From the NCBI RefSeq assembly GCF_001677475.2, contig NZ_CP015229.1: a stretch of 64,000 nt of DNA. The stretch is one strand, 5' to 3'. A program made the position numbers and the translations under genes. The stretch is from Escherichia coli (GTDB lineage Bacteria; Pseudomonadota; Gammaproteobacteria; Enterobacterales; Enterobacteriaceae). Position 1 is the stretch's first letter. Each line of letters starts with the position of its first letter. The notes beneath the pieces were generated by a model. That model was not told the DNA's origin. It worked only from the letters and a program-made list of their open reading frames with translations, and searched no databases. This document shows positions 45,922 through 63,609 of the stretch, in pieces.

Positions 45922-46511
45922 TGGATAGTTATATCGCGCTTACACTGTTTGGCTGTTTTTTTGTGCTGGTCTTTATTGGTGTGCCCATTTCGTTCTCAAT
46001 CGGTATTGCCACTGTAGCTTCAATGCTGTTGATGTTTCCCTGGGATATCGCGGCAATCACTGTTTCGCAGCGACTGGCTAATGGACTGGATAACTTTGCC
46101 CTATTGGCAATCCCCTTTTTCATCTTTGCCGGAACGCTGATGAACAGCGGCGGTATTGCGATACGTTTGATTAACCTCGCCCAGGTAATGGTTGGCCGCG
46201 TTCCTGGTTCGCTTGGTCATGTGAACGTCCTGGCGAATATGATGTTTGGTTCCATTTCTGGTTCAGCCGTTGCGGCAGCTGCTGCCGTTGGTGGCACACT
46301 GAATCCCATTCAGACCAAAGAAGGTTATGATCCGGCATTTTCTACCGCTGTAAACGTCTCATCCTGTATTACTGGATTACTGATACCGCCCTCAAACGTG
46401 TTAATTGTGTTTTCCCTGACAGCTGGCGGCGTTTCTGTAGCATCGCTATTTATGGCGGGATATTTGCCAGGGATCTTAATGGGTCTCGCGGTAATGGTTG
46501 TCTGCGCGTAA
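45921..46511 (+). pseudogene. TRAP transporter large permease (DctM family), N-terminal fragment cut by IS66 insertion
   Basis: Only ~196 codons of a normally ~430-aa permease; the frame runs into the IS66 left inverted repeat and stops at a TAA inside it (46509-46511). Confidence 0.7.
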
Positions 46512-46592
46512 GCGTAAACCGACCGCCGTATGTAGCCATTAGACAAGAATTGGTAACTTAGACGCCCATCTGACACAGACGGACATCTAAGT

Positions 46593-47012
46593 ATGGAATT
46601 ACAGGACTGGCGAAAAGAACCTCGTAAAAAGTATTCGAATGAATTCAAACTTCGTATGGTTGAACTGGCATCACAACCCGGTGCTTGTGTGGCTCAGATT
46701 GCACGAGAAAATGGCGTCAATGATAATGTTATTTTCAAATGGCTCAGACTCTGGCAAAACGAAGGGCGTATATCACGGCGTCTTCCGGTGACAACCACTT
46801 CTGATGCAGGCCTTGAATTATTACCTGTAGAGATAACCTCTGATGAGCCGAAAGAACCGATGGCTGCTCTTACTCCGCCCTTATCCACTCAGACTACTGT
46901 CAGTGCCAGCTCCTGCAAGGTGGAGTTCCGTCACGGTAACATGACGCTGGAAAATCCTTCACCAGAGCTGCTCACTGTATTGATTCGTGAACTGACCGGG
47001 AGGGGAAGATGA
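46593..47012 (+). CDS. IS66-family accessory protein (orf1, HTH)
   Basis: 139-aa first ORF of the IS66 triplet. Confidence 0.75.
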   Translation: MELQDWRKEPRKKYSNEFKLRMVELASQPGACVAQIARENGVNDNVIFKWLRLWQNEGRISRRLPVTTTSDAGLELLPVEITSDEPKEPMAALTPPLSTQTTVSASSCKVEFRHGNMTLENPSPELLTVLIRELTGRGR

Positions 47013-47359
47013 TCTCACTCCCATCCGGTACCCGTATCTGGCTCGTTGCCGGGATAACCGATATGCGTAAGTCTTTCAACGGGCTGGGTGAACAGGTACA
47101 GCATGTGTTAAATGTTAATCCCTTCTCCGGTCACCTGTTTATCTTCCGTGGCCGACGGGGTGACACCGTTAAAATTCTTTGGGCTGATGCTGATGGTCTG
47201 TGCCTGTTCACCAAACGCCTGGAGGAAGGCCAGTTTATCTGGCCTGCGGTGCGTGACGGTAAGGTATCCATTACCCGCTCGCAACTGGCAATGCTCCTCG
47301 ATAAGCTGGACTGGCGTCAGCCAAAAACATCCCGCCTTAACGCCCTGACAATGTTGTAA
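47009..47359 (+). CDS. IS66-family accessory protein (orf2)
   Basis: 116-aa ORF overlapping orf1 by 4 bp. Confidence 0.75.
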   Translation: MISLPSGTRIWLVAGITDMRKSFNGLGEQVQHVLNVNPFSGHLFIFRGRRGDTVKILWADADGLCLFTKRLEEGQFIWPAVRDGKVSITRSQLAMLLDKLDWRQPKTSRLNALTML

Positions 47360-47389
47360 AAAACGCCTGGCCGCATTATAAAAACGGCC

Positions 47390-48982
47390 ATGAGTCAGAA
47401 ATACCTCATTCGCATTGCAGAACTGGAAAGCCAGCTCCGTCAGAAAGACCAGCAACTGAGTCTGGTTGAAGAGACGGAGGCCTTCCTGCGCTCTGCACTG
47501 GCACGTGCCGAAGAAAAGATCGAAGAAGATGAACGGGAAATAGAACATCTGCGGGCTCAGATAGAAAAACTGCGCCGGATGCTGTTCGGTACCCGTTCTG
47601 AAAAACTGCGTCGTGAAGTTGAACAGGCTGAGGCCCTGCTGAAACAACGCGAACAGGACAGCGATCGTTACAGTGGGCGGGAAGACGATCCACAGGTTCC
47701 CCGCCAGTTGCGACAGTCGCGCCATCGTCGTCCGTTACCGGCACACCTTCCCCGTGAAATACACCGTCTGGAGTCTGAAGAAAGTTGTTGCCCGGAATGT
47801 GGCGGCGAGCTGGATTATCTGGGGGAAGTCAGTACTGAGCAGCTGGAACTGGTGAGCAGCGCCCTGAAAGTGATCCGCACAGAACGGGTAAAAAAAGCCT
47901 GTACAAAATGTGACTGCATCATTGAAGCACCGGCGCCGTCCCGCCCGATAGAGCGTGGTATCGCGGGCCCCGGATTACTTGCCCGCGTGTTAACGGGAAA
48001 ATACTGCGAACACCTGCCACTGTATCGTCAGAGTGAAATCTTTGCCCGACAGGGTGTCGAACTGAGCCGTGCATTACTCTCCAACTGGGTTGACGCGTGC
48101 TGCCAGTTAATGATGCCGCTGAATGATGCCCTGTACCGTTATGTGATGAATACCCGCAAGCTTCACACTGACGACACACCGGTAAAGGTACTGGCACCGG
48201 GCTTGAAAAAGACGAAAACAGGGCGCATCTGGACGTATGTCCGGGATGATCGCAATGCGGGTTCGTCATCTCCTCCGGCGGTCTGGTTCGCGTACTCACC
48301 GAACCGGCAGGGGAAACACCCGGAGCAACACCTCCGCCCCTTCCGGGGTATCCTGCAGGCGGATGCGTTCACAGGTTATGACAGGCTGTTCAGTGCAGAA
48401 CGTGAAGGTGGTGCGCTGACAGAAGTTGCGTGCTGGGCCCATGCCCGGAGAAAAATCCACGATGTATACATCAGCAGCAAAAGTGCGACGGCAGAAGAAG
48501 CCCTGAAGCGAATCAGTGAACTGTACGCCATCGAGGATGAAATACGGGGATTACCAGAGTCAGAGCGTCTTGCAGTCAGACAGCAGCGAAGCAAAGCGTT
48601 ACTGACGTCGCTGCATGAATGGATGGTGGAGAAGAATGGCACGCTGTCGAAAAAATCCAGACTGGGCGAAGCGTTCAGCTATGTACTGAATCAGTGGGAC
48701 GCCCTCTGTTATTACAGTGATGACGGACTGGCGGAGACGGACAATAACACAGCGGAAAGAGCGCTTCGTGCAGTCTGTCTTGGAAAGAAAAATTACGTGT
48801 TCTTCGGTAGCGATCACGGTGGCGAGCGTGGTGCACTGCTATACGGGCTGATCGGCACCTGCCGTCTGAACGGTATCGATCCGGAAGCGTATCTGCGCCA
48901 TATTCTGAGCGTACTGCCGGAATGGCCCTCCAACCGTGTTGACGAACTCCTGCCATGGAACGTGGTTCTCACCAATAAATAA
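47390..48982 (+). CDS. IS66-family transposase (orf3)
   Basis: 530-aa ORF with N-terminal coiled coil, CxxC zinc region and DDE-type core. Confidence 0.8.
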   Translation: MSQKYLIRIAELESQLRQKDQQLSLVEETEAFLRSALARAEEKIEEDEREIEHLRAQIEKLRRMLFGTRSEKLRREVEQAEALLKQREQDSDRYSGREDDPQVPRQLRQSRHRRPLPAHLPREIHRLESEESCCPECGGELDYLGEVSTEQLELVSSALKVIRTERVKKACTKCDCIIEAPAPSRPIERGIAGPGLLARVLTGKYCEHLPLYRQSEIFARQGVELSRALLSNWVDACCQLMMPLNDALYRYVMNTRKLHTDDTPVKVLAPGLKKTKTGRIWTYVRDDRNAGSSSPPAVWFAYSPNRQGKHPEQHLRPFRGILQADAFTGYDRLFSAEREGGALTEVACWAHARRKIHDVYISSKSATAEEALKRISELYAIEDEIRGLPESERLAVRQQRSKALLTSLHEWMVEKNGTLSKKSRLGEAFSYVLNQWDALCYYSDDGLAETDNNTAERALRAVCLGKKNYVFFGSDHGGERGALLYGLIGTCRLNGIDPEAYLRHILSVLPEWPSNRVDELLPWNVVLTNK

Positions 48983-49012
48983 GCGTCAATACGGTGCTCC
49001 GTTGACGCTTAC

Positions 49013-49624
49013 GGCCAGCGATACATACTGAGAACCTTTATCACTGTGATGGATTGTGCCGGACGGCCGACGGGCCCACAACGCCTGCTCCAGTGCATCC
49101 AGCACGAATGTTGTTTCCATGGATGATGAGACCTGCCATCCCACGATGTATCCGGCGAACACATCAATGATGAACGCCACATAAACGAAGCCCTGCCATG
49201 TGCTTACCCAGGTAAAATCAGCCACCCACAACTGGTCTGGACGTTCTGCCACGAACTGACGGTTTACGCGGTCGCATGCGGCAACGGCTTTCCGGCTGAC
49301 GGTAGTGCGGACCTTTTTACCCCGGAGAACACCGGCAAGTCCCATAACTGCCATGAGACGTGCCACAGTGCATCTGGCCACTCTGATACCTTCCCGTAAC
49401 AACTGACGCCAGACTTTACGCACACCGTATACCTGGTGATTTTCATCGTATACGCGCTGTATCTCTTTCTTCAGCCAGTCATCGTGCTGCGCACGGGCAC
49501 TGCGTTTATCCGGATGATGTCGCTGTTGCTGACAATGGTAATACGTTGACGGGGCAATATGCAGTTCGCTGCATACCGGTCCGACCCCGTACTGCTCACG
49601 CAGCTTATCCAGCAGTGGCATCAT
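49013..49624 (-). pseudogene. IS3-family transposase OrfB, 3'-truncated
   Basis: About 200 of ~296 expected codons; the frame terminates inside the abutting IS66 sequence. Confidence 0.7.
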
Positions 49625-49947
49625 TTTTTCCAGAGGCGGTCGAACTCCGCCTTCGCAAAATAAGCGGAAGCCTGGCGAAGGATATCGTTACTGCGGCGCA
49701 GTTCACGATTTTCACGTTCCAGCTCTTTCAGACGCTGACGTTCAGCGCTGGTGAGCCCACCATCACCGCCCCCGGTATCCCGCTCATGCTGGCGAACCCA
49801 GACACGCAGAGTCTCCGGCGTACAGCCAATCTTTGGGGCAATGGAACAAATTGCCGCCCACTGTGAGTCATATTCATCCTGACTTTCCAGAACCATACGA
49901 ATCGCCCGCTGACGGACTTCGGGGGAAAAACGAGTATTTTTAGTCAT
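49621..49947 (-). CDS. IS3-family transposase OrfA (IS629-like)
   Basis: 108-aa HTH/leucine-zipper OrfA starting [22 protein letters not shown]. Confidence 0.8.
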
Positions 49948-51451: not shown

Positions 51452-52684
51452 ATGAATGATAATTTTTTAACGGAGAAAGTCCTTACTGGAGAGAATGTTC
51501 TGCGTGCAGCAATTGCTCGTATTGAGTGGATTTTTGAAACATTTCCATCAGTTTGTCTCTCTTTTTCCGGTGGTAAAGATTCCACCGTGCTTTTCCATCT
51601 TGTGGCTGATGTGGCCCGCAGGAAAAGACGTCGTTTCTCTGTACTGTTCATTGACTGGGAGGCTCAGTACCAGTGCACCATTGAACATATTCAGAAGATG
51701 CGGGAAATGTACTATGATGTGACGGAAACCTTTTACTGGGTGGCGCTTCCCCTGACCACGGTAAACGGTGTCTCGCAGTTTCAACCGGAGTGGATATGCT
51801 GGGAGCCTCGTGTGACCTGGGTTCGCCAGCCACCGGAAGAGGCCATTACGGATATGGCGTATTTTCCCTTTTACCGGTATGCCATGGCGTTTGAAGAATT
51901 TGTTCCGGCATTTTCTTCCTGGTTTGCTGGCAACCGGTGTGGAGTGGCAGTGCTGACCGGTGTCCGGGCGGATGAATCCCTCAACCGCTTTATGGGACTG
52001 GTGTCCCAGCGCAAACTGAGATATGCCAATGATAAGCCTTGGACCACGGCATCGCCTGAAGGGTTTTACTACACTATGTATCCGCTGTATGACTGGAAAA
52101 CTCGTGATATCTGGATATATCACACCAGAACCCGTGCCATCTACAATCCCCTGTATGATCTGATGTACCGTGCCGGCGTACCGTTACGCAACATGCGTGT
52201 CTGTGAACCTTTTGGTCCTGAACAACGTAAGGGACTGTGGCTTTACCATGTTCTGGAACCGGAAACCTGGGCCAGGATGTGTGAGCGGGTGTCAGGGGCT
52301 GCCAGCGGGGCACTTTATGCCAATGAAAGCGGGGCTTATTTTGCCCTGCGTAAGCGCATATCAAAACCAGCCCATCATACCTGGCGCAGCTATGCGATGT
52401 TTCTGCTGGATGTGATGCCGGAAAGAACGGCAGAACATTACCGCAACAAGATAGCTGTCTATCTGCGCTGGTATCAGACGCGGGGCTTCCCGGATGACAT
52501 CCCGGATGAACAGGAGAATGACCTGGGGAGCCGGGATATTCCGTCCTGGCGACGTATCTGTAAGACTCTCATAAAGAATGATTTCTGGTGCCGTACCCTC
52601 TCCTTCAGTCCGAACAAACCCCGGCACTATGAACGTTATCTGCAGCGTATGAAAGAAAGGAGGAAGGAATGGGGGATTCTGTGA
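51452..52684 (+). CDS. PAPS-reductase-family PP-loop protein (IbrA-like)
   Basis: 410-aa ORF with PP-loop SFSGGKDS near the N-terminus; overlaps the following ParB-like gene. Confidence 0.7.
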   Translation: MNDNFLTEKVLTGENVLRAAIARIEWIFETFPSVCLSFSGGKDSTVLFHLVADVARRKRRRFSVLFIDWEAQYQCTIEHIQKMREMYYDVTETFYWVALPLTTVNGVSQFQPEWICWEPRVTWVRQPPEEAITDMAYFPFYRYAMAFEEFVPAFSSWFAGNRCGVAVLTGVRADESLNRFMGLVSQRKLRYANDKPWTTASPEGFYYTMYPLYDWKTRDIWIYHTRTRAIYNPLYDLMYRAGVPLRNMRVCEPFGPEQRKGLWLYHVLEPETWARMCERVSGAASGALYANESGAYFALRKRISKPAHHTWRSYAMFLLDVMPERTAEHYRNKIAVYLRWYQTRGFPDDIPDEQENDLGSRDIPSWRRICKTLIKNDFWCRTLSFSPNKPRHYERYLQRMKERRKEWGIL

Positions 52685-53307
52685 CACCGGAGATACTGAG
52701 CAACATGATTCGTCAGTACTTCAGCCAGGAACGACCAGAAGAAGAGGCCATACAGGCCCTGAATCATCTGCGCAGGGTGCTTCATGAGGTCAGTCCATTT
52801 GCACAGGAGCCTGTGGACTGTGTGCTGTGGGTGAAAGCAGATGAGGTGGTGGCCAACGATTATAACCCCAATGTCATGGCGCCGGGTGAGAAGAAACTGC
52901 TGAAACATTCACTGGAGCAGGATGGGTTCACGCAGCCTGTGGTTGTCTCGGAAGAGAAGGAGCATTATCTGGTCGTGGATGGTTTTCATCGTCAATTACT
53001 GGGCAGGGAAGCAGGTACGGGAAAACGCCTGAAGGGCTGGTTGCCAGTGACCTGTATTAATCCGGAAAGAAAGGGACAGGCCTCACGTATTGCTGCAACC
53101 ATTAGACATAACCGGGCCAGGGGGAAGCACCAGATAACTTCAATGTCTGATATTGTCAGGGACCTGTCGCGGCTGGGCTGGACGGATGAACGTATTGGTA
53201 CGGAGCTGGGTATGGACCAGGATGAAGTTCTCAGGTTGAAACAGATTAGCGGGCTGACGGAGCTGTTTCTGGAAGAGGATTTCAGTCCGGCATGGACGGT
53301 TCGCTGA
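52669..53307 (+). CDS. ParB/sulfiredoxin-domain protein (IbrB-like)
   Basis: 212-aa ORF containing VVVDGFHRQ (ParB N-terminal DGxHR-type motif); 16-bp overlap with the upstream gene. Confidence 0.65.
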   Translation: MGDSVTPEILSNMIRQYFSQERPEEEAIQALNHLRRVLHEVSPFAQEPVDCVLWVKADEVVANDYNPNVMAPGEKKLLKHSLEQDGFTQPVVVSEEKEHYLVVDGFHRQLLGREAGTGKRLKGWLPVTCINPERKGQASRIAATIRHNRARGKHQITSMSDIVRDLSRLGWTDERIGTELGMDQDEVLRLKQISGLTELFLEEDFSPAWTVR

Positions 53308-54708: not shown

Positions 54709-54715
54709 AAAATAA

Positions 54716-54740
54716 GGGTATAAATACTTATTTATACCCT
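54716..54740. terminator. Hairpin between convergent genes
   Basis: 11-bp perfect stem gggtataaata/tatttataccc with loop ctt, placed between the 54385-54708 ORF and the helicase gene stop. Confidence 0.5.
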
Positions 54741-54755
54741 GACTACATATCCAGT

Positions 54756-56954
54756 CTACTGAAGGTGTTTCTGCAGCCAGATGCACGTTCCTTTTATATC
54801 ATACGCCTGTGCCCCATACCCTTTAGCAAGCAAAGTCTCTGGTAAATACTCGTCATATTTATCCAGATACTTGTCGGGAACAACTGCAGCAAGCTCAAAC
54901 TCTGAAGGTAGCCCCGACAATAGCATTTTCTTAAGTGCACGCTGGACAGAGGCAACGCCTGAGTCCTCTACCTCTATCACACCTGCAAATGAACTGGCTT
55001 TAAAGCCACAACGTATAATCAGGGACGTAATTGTATTGACAATTTTATCCCCCATCCACGGGATCACGTAGCAGTTCTGACCACTGGCAATAAAACAGTC
55101 ATTTTGTAGATTGTAGCGTTGGAAGTTGTCACTTCCTTCCGCGAAGAGGCTTCTGGCTGCGGCATCAGCATAATCGACTCTCTTGTTGCCTACCGCGATA
55201 CGGTAATCATTTTCCCTGTAGATAGTGAGCATTTCCTGGCGAACAACATCATGAACAGACATCCCGGTACCACTGAATAGTGGCGGCTGACCGCCTTTAG
55301 TCGTCTCAACATAGATAACCTTTTTTTCAACCTCGATCTCTGTCACTTTCCAGCGCCGTCCGCCGAAGATGATGTGCTGCTCCGGCAAAAGTGGGGAGTC
55401 TACAGGCACTGTGCCAAGAGTTCGGTTTCCCGTTACAATGCGAAACTCCTCAGGTGTATTGAATACGGCATAAAACGTGTAGTGATTAGTCAGCTTCTCC
55501 CCCTCAGCCCCGACAACTATTTCACCGCTGGTTAGTTGAGTGAGCAGGCCACATGTCCCCATATGTTTAAGCAGACTTTTGAAGTCATTTATATCCACAT
55601 TCCGGAACGGACCTGTCTGGCAAAGTTGTGACCAGAGCTGATCGGCACGAACACCTCCCCATTGCGCAGTAATAGCCAGGATCTGGTGTAGTAGTGTGGA
55701 GTAATGTTTCTGCCGGATATCTGCAGGCTCGAACCAGCGCTTAGAGATCATCAACCTGATCATTGCCATCGCCTGAACCAACTGCAGCCGTAAATGATCC
55801 ACAATGCTGCTGGTTGCGGTAAGTTCAGGTTCAGTAATTAACATTCTCAGCACCGATGGGGAATCGCGCCGCCCTGAACGTCCCATGCGTTGACGCAGAC
55901 TGGAAACAGAATGCGGAGGTGTCACTTGTATGACAGACTGCACCTTACCAATATCAATACCCAGCTCCAGCGTCATTGTACAAACAGCGGTTGTGGGCAA
56001 ATTCCCTTTCTGCAGTCGGGCTTCAAGCGCCTCACGCAACTCCCTTGCAAGGGAACCATGATGAGGAAAGAATTCATTAGGAACGACATTTGCTTCACAC
56101 ATGTCGCTCAGTGTTGCCGCTATGCTTTCAGTACGCTTTCGACTGTTAGCAAAGACCAGGTGGGAATCGCCACGGCAGAGCCTGAAAATATCCGCGCAGA
56201 CGAGCTGTTCAGCAGAGCTCTGGAGCTCTTCTCCTTTTTCGGGCACCCGCTCAAGATAACCTTTAACCTGAACCTGTAGTGTGGCTTTGCTATTACTGTC
56301 TGTTACCGTTTCACAAGGTAATCTCTTATCCGGGCGCAATAGTTCTGGTACTTTTTCCAGCTCTCCCAGCGTGGCACTCAACGCGACACGGGGAACTGGA
56401 TTCAACTGGCGTCCCAGCACATGGTCAATTCTGTTAAGCAGAGAAAGCAGCTGTATACCACGCTCTGAGCCAATAAAAGCATGGAACTCATCAATAACAA
56501 TGTATGCCACAGAAGAAAACGCCTGTTTGAGCCAACCCAATGAGTTTATGAGCAAAGACTCAAGTGATTCAGGTGTGATAAGTAAGATGCCAGAAGGGGT
56601 TGTCCGTGCTTTCTTCTTTTTGCTTTGTGGTACATCCCCGTGCCAGGGCGTCACTTGCATTTCCAGGGCTTCACCAAGACTCTCAAGACGACGGTGTTGA
56701 TCGTTAATTAATGCCTTCAATGGACTGATATAGATAATGCCAAATCCACCAGTGAGATCTGCAATCGCTGAACAGGCAGGAAGAAAGAAAGCCTCTGTTT
56801 TACCCGCAGCTGTACCTGCACTAATTAGTACATCACGATCACGGGCTAAAATTGCCGGAATAGAGCTTTCCTGCAAGGGCCTTAAGGATGACCAGCCCTG
56901 CTTATAAACCCACTTACGGACACGGGGATCAAGACTATTGTAGGCACTACTCAT
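54756..56954 (-). CDS. DEAD/DEAH-box (Lhr-like) helicase; third gene of the candidate defence operon (SngC-like)
   Basis: 732-aa ORF with helicase motifs: Q (LRPLQ), I (AGTAAGKTEAF), II (DEFHAF), III (SAT), VI (QRMGRSGRR); overlaps the upstream ATPase gene by 4 bp. Confidence 0.8.
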   Translation of the reverse strand: MSSAYNSLDPRVRKWVYKQGWSSLRPLQESSIPAILARDRDVLISAGTAAGKTEAFFLPACSAIADLTGGFGIIYISPLKALINDQHRRLESLGEALEMQVTPWHGDVPQSKKKKARTTPSGILLITPESLESLLINSLGWLKQAFSSVAYIVIDEFHAFIGSERGIQLLSLLNRIDHVLGRQLNPVPRVALSATLGELEKVPELLRPDKRLPCETVTDSNSKATLQVQVKGYLERVPEKGEELQSSAEQLVCADIFRLCRGDSHLVFANSRKRTESIAATLSDMCEANVVPNEFFPHHGSLARELREALEARLQKGNLPTTAVCTMTLELGIDIGKVQSVIQVTPPHSVSSLRQRMGRSGRRDSPSVLRMLITEPELTATSSIVDHLRLQLVQAMAMIRLMISKRWFEPADIRQKHYSTLLHQILAITAQWGGVRADQLWSQLCQTGPFRNVDINDFKSLLKHMGTCGLLTQLTSGEIVVGAEGEKLTNHYTFYAVFNTPEEFRIVTGNRTLGTVPVDSPLLPEQHIIFGGRRWKVTEIEVEKKVIYVETTKGGQPPLFSGTGMSVHDVVRQEMLTIYRENDYRIAVGNKRVDYADAAARSLFAEGSDNFQRYNLQNDCFIASGQNCYVIPWMGDKIVNTITSLIIRCGFKASSFAGVIEVEDSGVASVQRALKKMLLSGLPSEFELAAVVPDKYLDKYDEYLPETLLAKGYGAQAYDIKGTCIWLQKHLQ

Positions 56955-58267
56955 AATCTGAAATTCGCCAGGCCATCATCGTCATCACTTTCCTCCACAA
57001 TGGCATCATCCATATCGCTGAGCTTGTCTTCTTCAATCGCCACCCCCTCAATGAGGGTTTGCCAGTTCATCGTTCTGTTTTGTTCCAGCACAGCCAGCAT
57101 ATCCAGAAAACCTTTTATGGTATTGCGGGGAGTTCGAAAGTAAGCATCTCCGATGGTTTTGCTGCAGTGATGCAGAAACCCGGTCAGAGCATCATCTGGC
57201 ACCAGATAATTTGCGGGATCTCCACCAGCATAAACATGACGAAGGTTTTTCAGTAAAATATACAGTTCCTCAGGAGTGAGGCTGGCAAGATGCAGCGTGG
57301 GGGACGAGTAGTCAATCACGCCAGCTTTCTGTGCGAATCGGTTTTCTGCCAGACGCGACTGGAGCGCTTCATAGCTGTAGAGCCCCTTACGTGGATCGAA
57401 AAGAAATTCTGGCGTCCCCCCGAGGATAAAACCAATATTTTCGGCGGAGCCTTGCAGGCAGTCATTCAGGATCCGCAAAATTTGTTCGTAGTTGGCCGTT
57501 CTCGCTTGCGTATTATTCAACTTGAAGAGGTTCACCATCTCGTCGAGGCTAACTAAAAGTCCGGCATAGCCTGCCTGACGGACAAAAAGGCTCATCAACT
57601 TCAAAGAATCATAGAACGAGGCGTCTGAGATAATCGTTCGGACGTCAAGATCATTACGGGCATCAGTTTTTGTGGTGTACTCGCCCCGCAACCAGCGAAT
57701 AGCATTGGATTTTAAGGTTTCGTTATCCTGCTCATGCCCGCGCCAGAATGCGTCAATGACCTTCGCAAAGTCATATCCTCCCACCATATCTGACAAAGCA
57801 GCAAGGCGTTTATGAATAACGGATGAGACCAGGGAGCCGTTCGCATCAGCTTCCTTCCTTGCCTCAGTAACAAACCTTTCCACAACGCTAAGTAATGCAT
57901 TGCCATCTGGTTTGTTTCTGGTGGACATATTTTTCATAAGCTCTGAGTAGAGATTACGAGCCTGACCTCCCGATGAGTGGATACGTCTGTCGGGAGAAAG
58001 GTCTGCACTGACCGTGACCAGCTTCTTCTCTAACGCAATAGACCGTACAACACTTAAAAAGAATGTTTTCCCGGAACCGTACTCACCAATGATAAGTCTG
58101 AAGCTTGCCCCGCCATCAGCAATCCGTTCAATATCCTGATGGAGGGCGGTTATCTCATTCACGCGGCCAACCTGGATATGCTGAATACCTATTCTTGGCG
58201 TTACTCCCGACTTAAGTGACTGAATGATAGCGTCGCGCTCTTTCACTCTTATACGTGTTACAGACAT
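56951..58267 (-). CDS. P-loop ATPase; second gene of the candidate defence operon (SngB-like)
   Basis: 438-aa ORF with Walker A GEYGSGKT and Walker B-like LLVSLDE; 3 bp from the upstream gene stop. Confidence 0.75.
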   Translation of the reverse strand: MSVTRIRVKERDAIIQSLKSGVTPRIGIQHIQVGRVNEITALHQDIERIADGGASFRLIIGEYGSGKTFFLSVVRSIALEKKLVTVSADLSPDRRIHSSGGQARNLYSELMKNMSTRNKPDGNALLSVVERFVTEARKEADANGSLVSSVIHKRLAALSDMVGGYDFAKVIDAFWRGHEQDNETLKSNAIRWLRGEYTTKTDARNDLDVRTIISDASFYDSLKLMSLFVRQAGYAGLLVSLDEMVNLFKLNNTQARTANYEQILRILNDCLQGSAENIGFILGGTPEFLFDPRKGLYSYEALQSRLAENRFAQKAGVIDYSSPTLHLASLTPEELYILLKNLRHVYAGGDPANYLVPDDALTGFLHHCSKTIGDAYFRTPRNTIKGFLDMLAVLEQNRTMNWQTLIEGVAIEEDKLSDMDDAIVEESDDDDGLANFRL

Positions 58268-58270
58268 TCA

Positions 58271-60580
58271 CTAACCCTCTAATTCTTTGGCTATTTCCAG
58301 GTCAATCCAAATGTGATCATCAGCATCTTCCAGCACTGGTGCATCAACCACCGCATAGGACCAATCGTTAATCACCTCAAGCGCACCGCCGAGCATCAGG
58401 TTCCAGTTACTACACAACTCTGTCGCCTCTTTTCTGGACCATTGTTCTTTCTCCAGCAACCTGCGATAAAGTTGGCTATGAGCGGAGTCAAGTCCCCCTT
58501 CCCCGGTTAATGAGGCTGGAGCGCTTTCTGGTTGTTCTGGTTCTTCTTCAGTGAAAATTGAGTTCAGTAATTTACGAACATCATCAGTGGCAGATTCGTG
58601 GCGGGCAAGTACGTTGGCATCCAGCGTAAACCCTGCCGTCGACTGATTAGCTGGTACAGATGAAACGAGAGCAGTTTCAGTTGCGGAATGCTGATGGATA
58701 TTGCTTGATACGGATGAGGGATCCAGTCCCAGGCTTGTATAAATCTTCTCAAGCTGTTTGATTTCGGCAGGCGTAATTCTGCCGTCAGAGCAAGCGACAC
58801 TAACGATAACCTTACCCACAGCTGATTTTTCCGCTGCACCGAGTAATTCAATCCGGCTTTTCATTCCCGTCATATTCGCCGGAGTATGAAGCTGCCACGT
58901 TAAATATGCGTGCAGAGAGCGCTTTTCATCATCGCTGAAGCTGGCATTGTTGTTGATGGCATTCTCAAGCACTTTCTGTTCGGCTTGATCGAGAGAATTG
59001 TCAATCAAGGCGACTACCGAACCTAATCGGAGCGTCAATACAGCTGTGATAAATTCAGGAGAAGGTGAGAAACGTCCTCTTTCACCAGCAGGGAATAAAA
59101 CAAGTACACCATCGACATCTGCCTTTACGTGGTGGTGATAGGGGTCAGGAGCCAGACAGTATCCCATTTTCTGTGCAAAGGCTTGCATTAAGTCGGCCTC
59201 TTTTTTATTGATCTTCGCCGGACAGGTGGCATTCATATGTGACCAGTAGTCAGCAACTGAAACTATCCCACCCTTACTGCGGATTGCGTCATCAGCCCAG
59301 TGTTTGAATGTACTTAATATTTTTTCTGCGCTTTCGTTAACGATTTCTGAAGGCAGCAACAAAATTGCAGCGGTATCATTTGCTGAAGTACCTTTTCTAC
59401 CAAGGTAACGACTGTAAGCATCCAGTTCACCTGTGCATATATCGGCAATGGCCATAAGCTTCTGAACAGGGCCTTTCAATGCACCTGGATCAGGCAAGTC
59501 GGGAACAGGAAGCCGAATACCTCGCAAACTGGGACTTGCAGGCGTGTAATCTAAACGCAGACGCGCTTTATTCGGCTTCACTACCATCCCTTCACCGTAT
59601 TTAAGGGTGTAACGCCGTTTAAATAGTGCAGCAAATTCTTTCGCACAGCGGCGGGCGGGGGTTCGTAATGAGTATTCAGCATGGTTTGTCACCCACGTCA
59701 GAGCCAGATCCGCTGGAACCGGGGCTCCTGTATCAACAGTCTTTGCCAGGATTAACCTGAACTGCATGCTATTGCTGAACTCCGAATCATCGTTGAGAGC
59801 TGCTGCAAGATTTTCGTTCGGACGAAGAATGGACATCGCTTCAAGTAACTGGGATGAGTAATTCCGGAAAGATCGGTTTTCATTGAAAACCGATCTGAGA
59901 CGGCAGATCTCTTTGAAAAGAGAATAGAACTCATCGTCGGATATATTGTTGTCCCTGCTGTCAACAAGCGCCCTTCTTTCCAGACCATACAGATAAATGA
60001 AAACGTAACCAATTGGGCAGGAAGTGTCGCATCTGTCGCTGGCAAGCCAACTCAGGTACGCACCACGAGCTTCAGGTGAAAGTGAGGAAAAACTGGGCCA
60101 ATACCCTAATGAACTATCTTCGTAAATGTAAGGTGTGGGGGATATTTTAAGCGTGTCGTCAACTAGCGATGCCTCGTTATTGCCATCATAATAACCGCCT
60201 GAGTTATGCCCGGCAGGTTTCATACGCTGCCCAAGATAGAAGTGACCGCCGGTAACCTCTATCCCACTGACTGTGATCATCTCTCCCGGAAAAATCCAAC
60301 GAGCCAAAGCACCGGTAGTTTTTGAGAAATTCTGGCGTTGAGTGGCTGTTATGCTGTATTCGACATTCCGCCCGCCACTTAGTGTAAACGTAGCCAGATT
60401 GTCATCTTCGCTGTCCTCGTTTTGCATTACAGACTGATTTTTTTTGTTGTTAGCAAGCCATTCTTTAGGTGGTGCTTTCACAGGAGCGGAAGTATAAGAG
60501 CCCGCGGACTTAGTTTTCTTCTTTTTGAAAAAAAGAATATAAATCAAATAAATAGCTACTATAAATATCCATAACTCCAT
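58271..60580 (-). CDS. Membrane-anchored protein with TerB-like motif; first gene of the candidate defence operon (SngA-like)
   Basis: 769-aa ORF; N-terminal hydrophobic helix (ELWIFIVAIYLIYILFF) then KKKK; internal segment VIVSVACSDGRITPAEIKQLEKI resembles the TerB-type xxADGxxxxxExxxL helix. Confidence 0.6.
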   Translation of the reverse strand: MELWIFIVAIYLIYILFFKKKKTKSAGSYTSAPVKAPPKEWLANNKKNQSVMQNEDSEDDNLATFTLSGGRNVEYSITATQRQNFSKTTGALARWIFPGEMITVSGIEVTGGHFYLGQRMKPAGHNSGGYYDGNNEASLVDDTLKISPTPYIYEDSSLGYWPSFSSLSPEARGAYLSWLASDRCDTSCPIGYVFIYLYGLERRALVDSRDNNISDDEFYSLFKEICRLRSVFNENRSFRNYSSQLLEAMSILRPNENLAAALNDDSEFSNSMQFRLILAKTVDTGAPVPADLALTWVTNHAEYSLRTPARRCAKEFAALFKRRYTLKYGEGMVVKPNKARLRLDYTPASPSLRGIRLPVPDLPDPGALKGPVQKLMAIADICTGELDAYSRYLGRKGTSANDTAAILLLPSEIVNESAEKILSTFKHWADDAIRSKGGIVSVADYWSHMNATCPAKINKKEADLMQAFAQKMGYCLAPDPYHHHVKADVDGVLVLFPAGERGRFSPSPEFITAVLTLRLGSVVALIDNSLDQAEQKVLENAINNNASFSDDEKRSLHAYLTWQLHTPANMTGMKSRIELLGAAEKSAVGKVIVSVACSDGRITPAEIKQLEKIYTSLGLDPSSVSSNIHQHSATETALVSSVPANQSTAGFTLDANVLARHESATDDVRKLLNSIFTEEEPEQPESAPASLTGEGGLDSAHSQLYRRLLEKEQWSRKEATELCSNWNLMLGGALEVINDWSYAVVDAPVLEDADDHIWIDLEIAKELEG

Positions 60581-60780
60581 GAGGCAGTAACCTTAAAAAT
60601 AGCTTTTCACGCACACCAAAAAGGATGACGATGGGAAGTGGATTAATCTCAAAATAATACTTCTAAATTAAAAAGGTTAAAAGCAAATCACAACCTTCCT
60701 GAGCTTCCGCTTTTCTCTTTCAGAGGGCTGAAGTCGTTATCTGTAACCAGAGGAGATCAGTAGCCCGTTATGCCAGCTAA

Positions 60781-60881
60781 AGCACTCCGGGCAGATTGCC
60801 CGGAGTGCTTAATATTTTAATGGATTGTTAATCTTCGCATACTCAAAGGGGCTGGTATTTTCTTTCGAGTTTGTATCCAGA
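60781..60881 (-). repeat. Hairpin plus remnant of a gene 3' end, homologous to the sequence at 63904-64000
   Basis: 13-bp perfect stem agcactccgggca/tgcccggagtgct; the following 67 bp align at ~75-80% identity with 63934-64000; minus-strand translation ...SPFEYAKINNPLKY* versus ...SPFEYAKINNPLKQ*. Confidence 0.5.
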
Positions 60882-61126: not shown

Positions 61127-61217
61127 GAAAACATTCCTTTTACCCTATCTTTTGCATGGTTTTAGAATGAGCAACCCCATTTATCGTTCGGGGAAAGTGA
61201 TAGCGGAGATGATTGAA

Positions 61218-61958
61218 ATGAATAAGGTTATTGCGGTTTCAGCGCTTGCCATGGCAGGCATGTTTTCGACCCAGGCTCTGGCTGATGAGAGCAAAACAGG
61301 CTTTTATGTGACCGGTAAAGCAGGTGCTTCTGTTATGTCACTTGCAGACGAGCGTTTCCTGTCGGGTGATGGAGAGGAAACATCAAAATATAAAGGCGGT
61401 GATGGCCATGATACGGTATTCAGTGGCGGTATCGCGGCCGGTTATGATTTTTACCCGCAGTTCAGTATTCCGGTTCGTACGGAACTGGAGTTTTACGCTC
61501 GTGGAAAAGCTGATTCGAAGTATAACGTAGATAAAGACAGCTGGTCAGGCGGTTACTGGCGTGATGACCTGAAGAATGAGGTGTCAGTCAACACACTGAT
61601 GCTGAATGCGTACTATGACTTCCGGAATGACAGTGCATTCACACCATGGGTATCTGCAGGGATTGGCTACGCCAGAATTCACCAGAAAACAACCGGTATC
61701 AGTACCTGGGATTATGGGTACGGAAGCAGTGGTCGCGAATCGTTGTCACGTTCAGGCTCTGCTGACAACTTCGCATGGAGCCTTGGCGCGGGTGTCCGCT
61801 ATGACGTAACCCCGGATATCGCTCTGGACCTCAGCTATCGCTATCTTGATGCAGGTGACAGCAGTGTGAGTTACAAGGACGAGTGGGGCGATAAATATAA
61901 ATCAGAAGTTGATGTTAAAAGTCATGACATCATGCTTGGTGTGACTTATAACTTCTGA
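61218..61958 (+). CDS. Outer-membrane beta-barrel protein (family unassigned)
   Basis: ATG at 61218; signal peptide MNKVIAVSALAMAGMFSTQALA; alternating aromatic/hydrophobic strands; C-terminal ...VTYNF. Confidence 0.6.
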   Translation: MNKVIAVSALAMAGMFSTQALADESKTGFYVTGKAGASVMSLADERFLSGDGEETSKYKGGDGHDTVFSGGIAAGYDFYPQFSIPVRTELEFYARGKADSKYNVDKDSWSGGYWRDDLKNEVSVNTLMLNAYYDFRNDSAFTPWVSAGIGYARIHQKTTGISTWDYGYGSSGRESLSRSGSADNFAWSLGAGVRYDVTPDIALDLSYRYLDAGDSSVSYKDEWGDKYKSEVDVKSHDIMLGVTYNF

Positions 61959-62109: not shown

Positions 62110-63609
62110 ATGAATATCAGAAAGCTGTTTTATACGGACAATATATCCCGGATTTTATTGTTTTTATTCTTCCCGGGCATGTGTGTAATAACCACTGCCG
62201 CATGCGGATACACTGAGAAGAATGCCACCGGGAATGTGTTGCTGCTGTTTCTCCTTCTGATTCTTGCACACAGAAATACCCTTACATCCATTACAGCTCT
62301 GTTATTTCTGTTCTGTTGTGCACTGTATGCACCTGTCGGTATGACGTACGGAAAAATCAACAACAGTTTTATTGTCGCGTTGTTGCAGACCACGGCGGAT
62401 GAGGCTGCGGAGTTTACCGGGATGATTCCTGTTTATCATTTTCTGGTCAGTGCCGCGATTCTGGTGTTCATGGTTATTTTCTGGCGGACACACCACCGTG
62501 GTCAACGTAACGCGATGGCTCTGTTGTTATTCGTATTATGCTCTGTAAACAGCTGGCCGTTACGGATGGTTAAAGGAACAGTTGTGGGGACAACTGACAC
62601 ATTGCGTGAAATGCAGCGTTATGAACAACTGAGTCGGCACGGTGCTGACAGCTGGAAAATCCTGCCGGGAGCACCATTATATGACACGATTGTTATTGTT
62701 ACTGGTGAGAGTGTCCGCAGGGATTATATGTCGGTATATGGTTATCCCGAGCCAACCACACCATGGCTGAATACGGCTCCCGGTTTATTTATTGACGGTT
62801 ATACATCGGCAGCAGCCAGCACCGTGCCTTCCCTGAGCCGGACACTGATTTATGACTATGAGCAGAACCCTGATTCCGGCAACAACGTGGTGGCGCTGGC
62901 AGCAAAAGCAGGATACAGCACATGGTGGATATCCAATCAGGGAAAACTGGGAGAGCATGACACACGCATCTCTGTTATTGCTTCTGATGCGGACCATACT
63001 GTTTTCCTCAAGAAAGGCAGCTTTGCTTCCCGTAAAACGGATGACATGTTGTTGTTACAGGAAACAGAACGTGCGCTGGCAGATACATCCACTCCGAAGG
63101 TGATTTTCCTGCACATGATGGGGTCTCATCCGAACCCGTGTGATCGGCTTCACTCCTGGCAGAATAATTACCTGGAGCAGTATTCCCGAAAAATTGCCTG
63201 TTATCTTGCCAGCATCAGTAAACTGGATAACTTTCTTGGTCAGCTTGATGGTATCCTTCGCCGACACTCACGTCATTTCGCCATGCTTTACTTTTCTGAC
63301 CATGGGCTGTCGGTCAGCGACAGTGCTAATCCTGTTCATCATGATGGTCATGTGCAGGGAGGCTACAGCGTGCCCCTGATTATTACCGCCAGTGATATAA
63401 CCTCTCATCAGTCCCTCAGCAGAAAAATCAGTGCCCGTCATTTCACAGGTATTTTTCAGTGGCTGACCGGTATTCGTACCGAAAATATACCGCCATTCAA
63501 TCCACTGACAGACGAAGATAATGAACGCATTATGGTTTTTAACGGAGAGAGGTATGTACAGGAAGACAGTCTGAAACCGCAGCCGCTTATTCTTCCGGAC
63601 CACAGGTAA
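62110..63609 (+). CDS. Phosphoethanolamine-transferase-like membrane protein (sulfatase / alkaline-phosphatase superfamily)
   Basis: 499-aa ORF with N-terminal TM helices and the sulfatase-type segment IVIVTGESVRRDYMSVYGYP. Confidence 0.6.
   Translation: MNIRKLFYTDNISRILLFLFFPGMCVITTAACGYTEKNATGNVLLLFLLLILAHRNTLTSITALLFLFCCALYAPVGMTYGKINNSFIVALLQTTADEAAEFTGMIPVYHFLVSAAILVFMVIFWRTHHRGQRNAMALLLFVLCSVNSWPLRMVKGTVVGTTDTLREMQRYEQLSRHGADSWKILPGAPLYDTIVIVTGESVRRDYMSVYGYPEPTTPWLNTAPGLFIDGYTSAAASTVPSLSRTLIYDYEQNPDSGNNVVALAAKAGYSTWWISNQGKLGEHDTRISVIASDADHTVFLKKGSFASRKTDDMLLLQETERALADTSTPKVIFLHMMGSHPNPCDRLHSWQNNYLEQYSRKIACYLASISKLDNFLGQLDGILRRHSRHFAMLYFSDHGLSVSDSANPVHHDGHVQGGYSVPLIITASDITSHQSLSRKISARHFTGIFQWLTGIRTENIPPFNPLTDEDNERIMVFNGERYVQEDSLKPQPLILPDHR

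Follow-up and report, generated by a model that had tools for sequence, protein, structure and literature searches.

The 64,000-nucleotide stretch of Escherichia coli DNA analysed here (the window; contig NZ_CP015229.1 of assembly GCF_001677475.2) raises a question at positions 54756-60580: what is the operon formed by three intact minus-strand genes, which a six-frame list of open reading frames (ORFs) gives as encoding 769, 438 and 732 amino acids (aa), and how might its products act together? A preliminary description of the DNA had proposed a Shango-like candidate anti-phage system. The locus, in a genomic island of E. coli type, is almost certainly an intact sngABC operon, which encodes the Shango system of anti-phage defence. 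Shango is already known, having been described in 2022-2023 and catalogued in PADLOC and DefenseFinder, and a close allele has already been tested in E. coli. The identification is correct but ordinary, and the word "candidate" does not stand. The features of the operon are:

58271-60580, minus strand: sngA, a 769-aa TerB-domain protein with an N-terminal transmembrane helix (ORF list, PADLOC, Pfam)
56951-58267, minus strand: sngB, a 438-aa BrxD-like P-loop ATPase (PF10923, formerly DUF2791; ORF list, PADLOC, Pfam)
54756-56954, minus strand: sngC, a 732-aa superfamily 2 (SF2) DExH helicase, Lhr-core/BrxHI-like (ORF list, PADLOC, Pfam, AlphaFold2/Foldseek)
54715-54740, minus strand: terminator-like hairpin and T run, 16 nt past the sngC stop (pattern scan, a consensus match only)
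60581-60719, minus strand: non-coding leader upstream of sngA and probable site of its promoter; this stretch of the 5' flank is common to the cloned Shango fragment of E. coli KTE113 (see below)

The tight coupling of the three co-directional genes is borne out by their exact coordinates. Read from the sequence, the TAG stop of sngA is separated from the sngB ATG by a 3-nt spacer, and the stop of sngB overlaps the start of sngC by 4 nt (ATGA). The hairpin at 54715-54740 is likely to mark the end of the operon. A simple pattern scan gave no match to a sigma-70 consensus upstream of sngA; the sngA promoter region is probably 60581-60719.

The identification as Shango is carried first by profile searches. 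The PADLOC models for SngA, SngB and SngC match the three proteins at 2.5e-99, 8.7e-187 and 4.6e-278, those of SngB (1-438 vs 1-439) and SngC over their full length. These models stand far ahead of other families, the next being BrxD for SngB (8.7e-44) and BrxHI for SngC (1.7e-115); gene content and order agree with Shango, as had been claimed. Pfam likewise returned every domain type named in the preliminary description: TerB_N (residues 98-309, 1.4e-48), TerB (519-624, 9.9e-06) and TerB_C (644-768, 3.3e-27), which give the 769-aa protein its TerB-family match; the DUF2791-type family BrxC_BrxD (PF10923) in SngB at 1.3e-150; and DEAD and Helicase_C in SngC. None of the three proteins passes any NCBIfam model cut-off, and because of this RefSeq gives them generic names ("TerB N-terminal domain-containing protein", "ATP-binding protein" and "DEAD/DEAH box helicase") close to those that had been predicted.

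The genes are also linked elsewhere. The sngA-B-C order is kept in Pantoea cypripedii, where it adjoins HamA/HamB (Hachiman), AbiEii and an HD-domain gene, and in four metagenomic contigs. Dickeya solani keeps the order with an insertion sequence (IS) element between sngB and sngC (DDE_3 transposase, L003:11752-12789), which has probably disrupted the operon there. Consecutive gene identifiers for SngA, SngB and SngC are listed in several phyla (Millman et al. 2022, Table S19). Neither a missing TerB-family match nor unlinked genes, two outcomes named in the preliminary description as speaking against Shango, was observed.

The comparison with the experimentally tested allele is equally direct. 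The name Shango comes from Millman et al. 2022 (Cell Host Microbe; bioRxiv 10.1101/2022.05.11.491447), who described a TerB-domain system and noted its parallel discovery in Pseudomonas aeruginosa. The Shango they tested (SG206, supplement file 11) comes from E. coli KTE113 and has proteins of 769 (SngA), 438 (SngB) and 732 aa (SngC). The window proteins equal these in length. The comparison covered the first 399 residues of each protein and the first 399 nt of the cloned fragment (all upstream sequence); within it, identity is 92% for SngA (33 substitutions), 99% for SngB and 97.7% for SngC. The last 67 nt of the upstream sequence align to window positions 60653-60719 at 89.6% identity and diverge further upstream, which places the start of the cassette shared with KTE113 at about 140 nt upstream of sngA. 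The exact KTE113 upstream flank has no match in the window. Johnson et al. 2023 (NAR, PMC10250203) showed that the P. aeruginosa PA14 system inhibits several phage families, and they state that E. coli Shango inhibited two phages approximately 10-fold.

SngA residues 1-19 (MELWIFIVAIYLIYILFFK) form the most hydrophobic 19-residue segment of the protein (Kyte-Doolittle 2.07) and are followed by KKKKTK; the TerB-like helix ACSDGRITPAEIKQLEKI lies at residues 596-613, within the Pfam TerB match. Hydrophobicity, lysine run and TerB match together agree with the earlier account of a 769-aa protein with an N-terminal transmembrane helix, a poly-Lys run and a TerB-like helix. Helix and lysine run are kept in 40 enterobacterial homologues at 51-95% identity, and homologues of about 769 aa were found across Enterobacterales. 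A sequence search of solved structures with SngA gave no match. Truncated SngA entries are numerous in E. coli (for example P0090, P0092 and P0094), which suggests frequent inactivation.

SngB, described earlier as a 438-aa protein with a Walker A motif, carries GEYGSGKT at residues 61-68. On the PADLOC and Pfam matches, it is an ORC/Cdc6-type AAA+ ATPase homologous to BrxD. A search of solved structures with its sequence returned noise only (E 0.34), and no Shango structure was found.

SngC contains DEFH at residue 155, SAT at 193 and QRMGRSGR at 355. Across 109 aligned full-length homologues of diverse sequence (36-55% identity), the residues G51 and K52, D155, E156 and H158, S193, A194 and T195, and Q355, G358, R359, G361 and R362 are invariant. 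Motifs I, II, III and VI are thus all conserved, in keeping with the full DExH motif set ascribed to this 732-aa protein. The AlphaFold2 model (mean predicted local distance difference test score, pLDDT, 93.9) consists of two RecA domains, a winged helix, a beta-barrel and a C-terminal domain. In a Foldseek search of the PDB the top match is the Mycobacterium smegmatis Lhr core (5v9x; E 4.3e-30, query-normalised TM-score, TMq, 0.69), followed by MrfA (6znp; E 2.1e-26, TMq 0.61); both cover the whole SngC chain at 17-20% identity. Pfam, PADLOC and Foldseek detected no added nuclease fold in the window SngC. The best NCBIfam match is the ligase-associated DEXH helicase TIGR04121 (2.3e-70), at 237.3 bits vs a cut-off of 850, and Lhr PRK09751 scores 103.5 bits vs 1496; membership of either family is rejected on these scores. 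By its modelled fold, SngC probably works like an Lhr-core helicase without belonging to the Lhr family. Lhr biochemistry provides a further basis for its direction of movement and its substrate.

How the three proteins might work together is suggested by their BREX (bacteriophage exclusion) relatives. A comparative study (PMC12839542, 2026) describes BrxD and BrxHI as a tightly linked pair in type-2 BREX. It places BrxD among the ORC/Cdc6 AAA+ ATPases and proposes that BrxD loads or activates BrxHI; the latter, a Ski2-like helicase, carries a winged helix, a beta-barrel and a C-terminal DNA-binding domain resembling that of Lhr. Since SngB and SngC are full-length homologues of this pair, SngB would load or activate SngC. 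SngA would act close to the membrane as a scaffold or sensor, with its N-terminal helix as the anchor in the inner membrane; the lysine run follows the helix, so the TerB_N/TerB/TerB_C body would be cytoplasmic. Near the entry site, SngC would then unwind or travel 3'-to-5' along phage DNA or along intermediates of replication or recombination.

The following step of this mechanism would be the exposure or feeding of nucleic acid to a nuclease, which in some Shango variants is fused in cis. Among the 150 best SngC cluster representatives, 18 carry C-terminal extensions. These are nuclease-like and of about four kinds, two of them weakly identified:

P0127, P0128, P0134, P0137, P0145, P0154, P0157, P0167, P0186, P0191, P0194, P0201, P0215 and P0265: one shared extension (14 of 18), a DEDDh/RNase_T exonuclease in the five scanned (matches to P0127, P0128, P0134 and P0145 in PADLOC and to P0145 in Pfam), the other nine being placed by mutual BLAST similarity of their extensions
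P0130: PD-(D/E)xK domain (PDDEXK_1, Cas4-like)
P0204 and P0136: DUF2779/RecB-like region, weak matches
P0219: beta-CASP metallo-beta-lactamase, RNase J-like (1.4e-13)

All four fused SngC genes whose context was looked up lie in operons of the TerB_N...TerB_C, BrxC_BrxD, helicase type. Repeated and independent fusion of SngC to domains that look like unrelated nucleases suggests a nuclease step in the action of Shango on nucleic acid. In the window operon, a host enzyme would degrade the nucleic acid, or helicase action alone would suffice; the missing nuclease could explain the modest protection reported.

The PADLOC candidate PDC-S48 touches the same proteins. P0145, an SngC-exonuclease fusion, matches its profile over the whole length, and in fused SngC proteins the DEDDh exonuclease matches fall on the same stretch as the N-terminal part of the profile. 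PDC-S48 and the nuclease module of Shango variants may thus be related. A weak match to PDC-S48 (E 3.4e-4) also falls on SngA aa 592-653, in the TerB region (window approximately 58622-58807).

SngA varies at its other end. In two of the four looked-up operons with a fused SngC (L006:2318-4756 and L007:2297-4756), Pfam places FHA and Yop-YscD_cpl domains at its N-terminus, where the enterobacterial form has a transmembrane helix, and gives no TerB match between TerB_N and TerB_C. The N-terminal module of SngA therefore seems exchangeable, a transmembrane helix in some proteins and FHA in others.

Together, these observations lead to a tentative proposal, which we hold to be possible though somewhat doubtful: Shango would be a helicase-loader machine coupled to a nuclease, in which the fused partners reveal the nucleolytic step, the nuclease-less form uses a host nuclease, and the variable SngA N-terminus sets where or when the machine is triggered. 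This nuclease-coupled loader idea was not found in the literature searched; it may stand in, for example, Anantharaman, Iyer & Aravind 2012.

Several points weigh against the mechanism set out above or limit its reach. Papers and reviews up to February 2026 give the Shango mechanism as unknown, and the steps above are purely inferred. No nuclease domain is present in 132 of the 150 SngC representatives, nor in the window operon, so the argument from fusions may not carry over to the latter. The 3'-to-5' direction and the substrate of SngC are taken from Lhr through a modelled fold at approximately 20% identity. The AlphaFold2 model of SngA is poor (mean pLDDT 65, residues 18-192 below 50), with the linker after KKKK at low confidence, and does not establish the topology of SngA or its contacts with SngB and SngC. 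A Foldseek search with it gave no significant match, the sole results being small TerB-like proteins, and added nothing on the TerB_N and middle regions. Finally, the phage phenotype of the window allele is expected from relatives only, its SngA being approximately 8% divergent from the tested one.

The conserved membrane anchor of SngA would also fit a different, and in our judgement unlikely, mode of action: membrane or envelope surveillance followed by abortive infection. Here, SngA would sense a membrane perturbation, or an ion or metal flux, arising from phage DNA injection or late lysis functions, and the ATPase and helicase would halt host growth instead of attacking phage DNA; the same membrane idea has been put forward for Dionysus DinB. 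However, the operon is without a recognisable toxic effector (pore, NADase, protease or nuclease), the occurrence of FHA at the SngA N-terminus elsewhere suggests that membrane anchoring is not universal, and the recurrent fusion of nuclease-like domains to SngC speaks for nucleic acid as the target.

The distribution of the operon brings in another explanation. A 6.3-kb segment carrying it is present at >=80% coverage in 442 of 5,426 complete E. coli genomes (8%), with some part of it in 831, and on 603 plasmid records. Classified by organism, the plasmid matches comprise 649 records, mostly from Klebsiella (469) and Salmonella (144), and 537 are predicted conjugative; among phage records, none holds most of the segment. 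This abundance on plasmids, the additional presence of the operon in tRNA-Phe islands by integrases, and the carriage of Shango in E. coli islands that also hold the anti-plasmid system ApsAB (PMC11096173) would be accounted for if the operon served mainly in conflict between mobile elements (anti-plasmid action or plasmid-phage competition), its modest anti-phage effect being secondary. This is quite improbable: measurements in two species show anti-phage activity, the literature searched reports no action of Shango against plasmids, and carriage by mobile elements is typical of defence systems generally.

A stress-response or DNA-repair module akin to Ter and to Lhr-type repair helicases, rather than dedicated immunity, is scarcely credible, for although the TerB domain was first found in a tellurite-resistance cassette (Millman et al. 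2022) and the best NCBIfam match of SngC is the ligase-associated, DNA-damage-response DEXH helicase (2.3e-70), that match reaches 237 bits vs a cut-off of 850, neither terC, terD and terZ nor ligase genes were found nearby, the operon is accessory (8% of E. coli genomes, islands and plasmids, beside Hachiman/AbiE in Pantoea), and phage phenotypes are known for close and distant homologues. All three rivals are less well supported than the favoured mechanism, in which SngB loads or activates SngC under a membrane-tethered SngA.

The surroundings of the operon agree with the mobile-element-rich island described at the outset. The GC content is 45-48% at the operon vs 51-55% in the core part of the window. 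The gene for an IS66-family transposase occupies 47390-48982. In the 99.9%-identical locus of E. coli IBS28, the annotation shows an integrase remnant just upstream, and the operon lies in an island by a tyrosine integrase and tRNA-Phe, beside dsbD and cutA; the window has no tRNA gene. The neighbours comprise an IbrA-like phosphoadenosine phosphosulfate (PAPS) reductase, an IbrB/ParB-like protein, PerC, hypothetical proteins, an outer-membrane protein and a phosphoethanolamine (PEtN) transferase. No methyltransferase, PglZ or restriction gene was found among them, and the earlier statement that the layout is neither that of restriction-modification nor that of BREX holds.

Some of this surrounding DNA merits separate description. 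On the plus strand at 51452-53307, the gene for the IbrA-like PAPS reductase (410 aa) overlaps that for the IbrB/ParB-like protein (212 aa). Next come a PerC-family regulator gene and small hypothetical genes; the pair is convergent with the Shango operon, running towards its 3' end. The IbrA-like gene gives only weak PAPS-reductase cross-matches to BrxP and DndC in PADLOC, and the pair could be a module of DNA-modification type. The neighbouring genes were considered as Shango components and rejected, being absent from other Shango loci. Upstream of Shango, also on the plus strand, the island cargo includes a 268-aa beta-barrel outer-membrane protein, Adr/OmpW-like (61152-61958), and a 499-aa CptA/EptA-like phosphoethanolamine transferase lies at 62110-63609, with distant, sub-threshold matches to MCR families. 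Between the integrase remnant and the Shango upstream region, positions 60780-60810 form a perfect 14-bp stem with a 3-nt loop (AAGCACTCCGGGCA GAT TGCCCGGAGTGCTT) in A/T-rich flanks. Homology to the Salmonella plasmid copies stops at window position 60779, just short of this stem-loop.

The IS66-family element, at approximately 46500-49650, lies where E. coli core genes (galP...hemW, 98.2% identical to E. coli) give way to the island. Collinearity across this junction is seen in no complete E. coli genome, and in IBS28 the island segment lies at tRNA-Phe near dsbD, which together suggest that the junction arose by IS-mediated rearrangement in the source genome. Where the window holds this element, IBS28 has a gene annotated as "3'-5' exonuclease" (L001:7464-9209), 6 kb from Shango. 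Its product is of the NERD+UvrD type (PADLOC C3a187, 2.6e-137). As a nuclease acting in trans for the window Shango it is rejected, being of that type and absent from the window; it is a further defence-gene candidate from this family of islands.

For annotation, the result is that three generically named genes become sngA, sngB and sngC and that the island can be recorded as defence-carrying. The locus adds nothing new in kind, and its allele occurs commonly in E. coli as well as on plasmids of Klebsiella and Salmonella. The nuclease fusions of SngC and the exchange of transmembrane helix and FHA in SngA provide concrete hypotheses for the mechanism of Shango, and the E. coli allele would be convenient for testing them.

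The operon was also set against known systems. It is rejected as a ter operon, a terZABCDE-type gene set around a small stand-alone TerB: the two have only the TerB domain in common, the annotation of the 99.9%-identical locus shows no terC, terD or terZ within 15 kb, and none was found among the scanned window ORFs. Bunzi and Dionysus share with Shango a TerB-domain protein and a proposed membrane link but have other partners, in Dionysus a pore-forming toxin and a MAEBL-domain protein, and are without a BrxD-like ATPase or Lhr-like helicase. The Lhr core (5v9x) and MrfA/YprA (6znp) have the RecA1, RecA2, winged-helix and C-terminal domains of the predicted SngC fold, together with the DExH motifs; in contrast to SngC, they are lone repair enzymes without a TerB or BrxD partner.

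Type-2 BREX (Pgl) resembles the operon in that SngB aligns end to end with BrxD (8.7e-44) and SngC with BrxHI (1.7e-115), and in that the ATPase gene of each system adjoins the helicase gene in tight linkage. The window operon differs in having a TerB-domain protein in place of PglX, PglZ, BrxC and PglW. Membership of type-2 BREX is rejected, since these four are not among the neighbours and SngB scores 143.9 bits against the NCBIfam BrxD cut-off of 350. The PA14 system (PA14_RS11735-RS11745) belongs to the same PADLOC/DefenseFinder family, with a TerB-like protein, an ATPase and a DEAD/DEAH helicase; compared by description only, it occupies the P. aeruginosa core chromosomal hotspot cDHS1, whereas the E. 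coli operon is found in a tRNA-Phe island. Closest of all is the KTE113 Shango. The two differ in their alleles, mostly of SngA, and in the unrelated DNA that flanks them beyond approximately 140 nt upstream, and they are alike in gene order, in protein lengths, in the N-terminal transmembrane helix with its KKKK, and in the proximal ~70 nt of upstream sequence.

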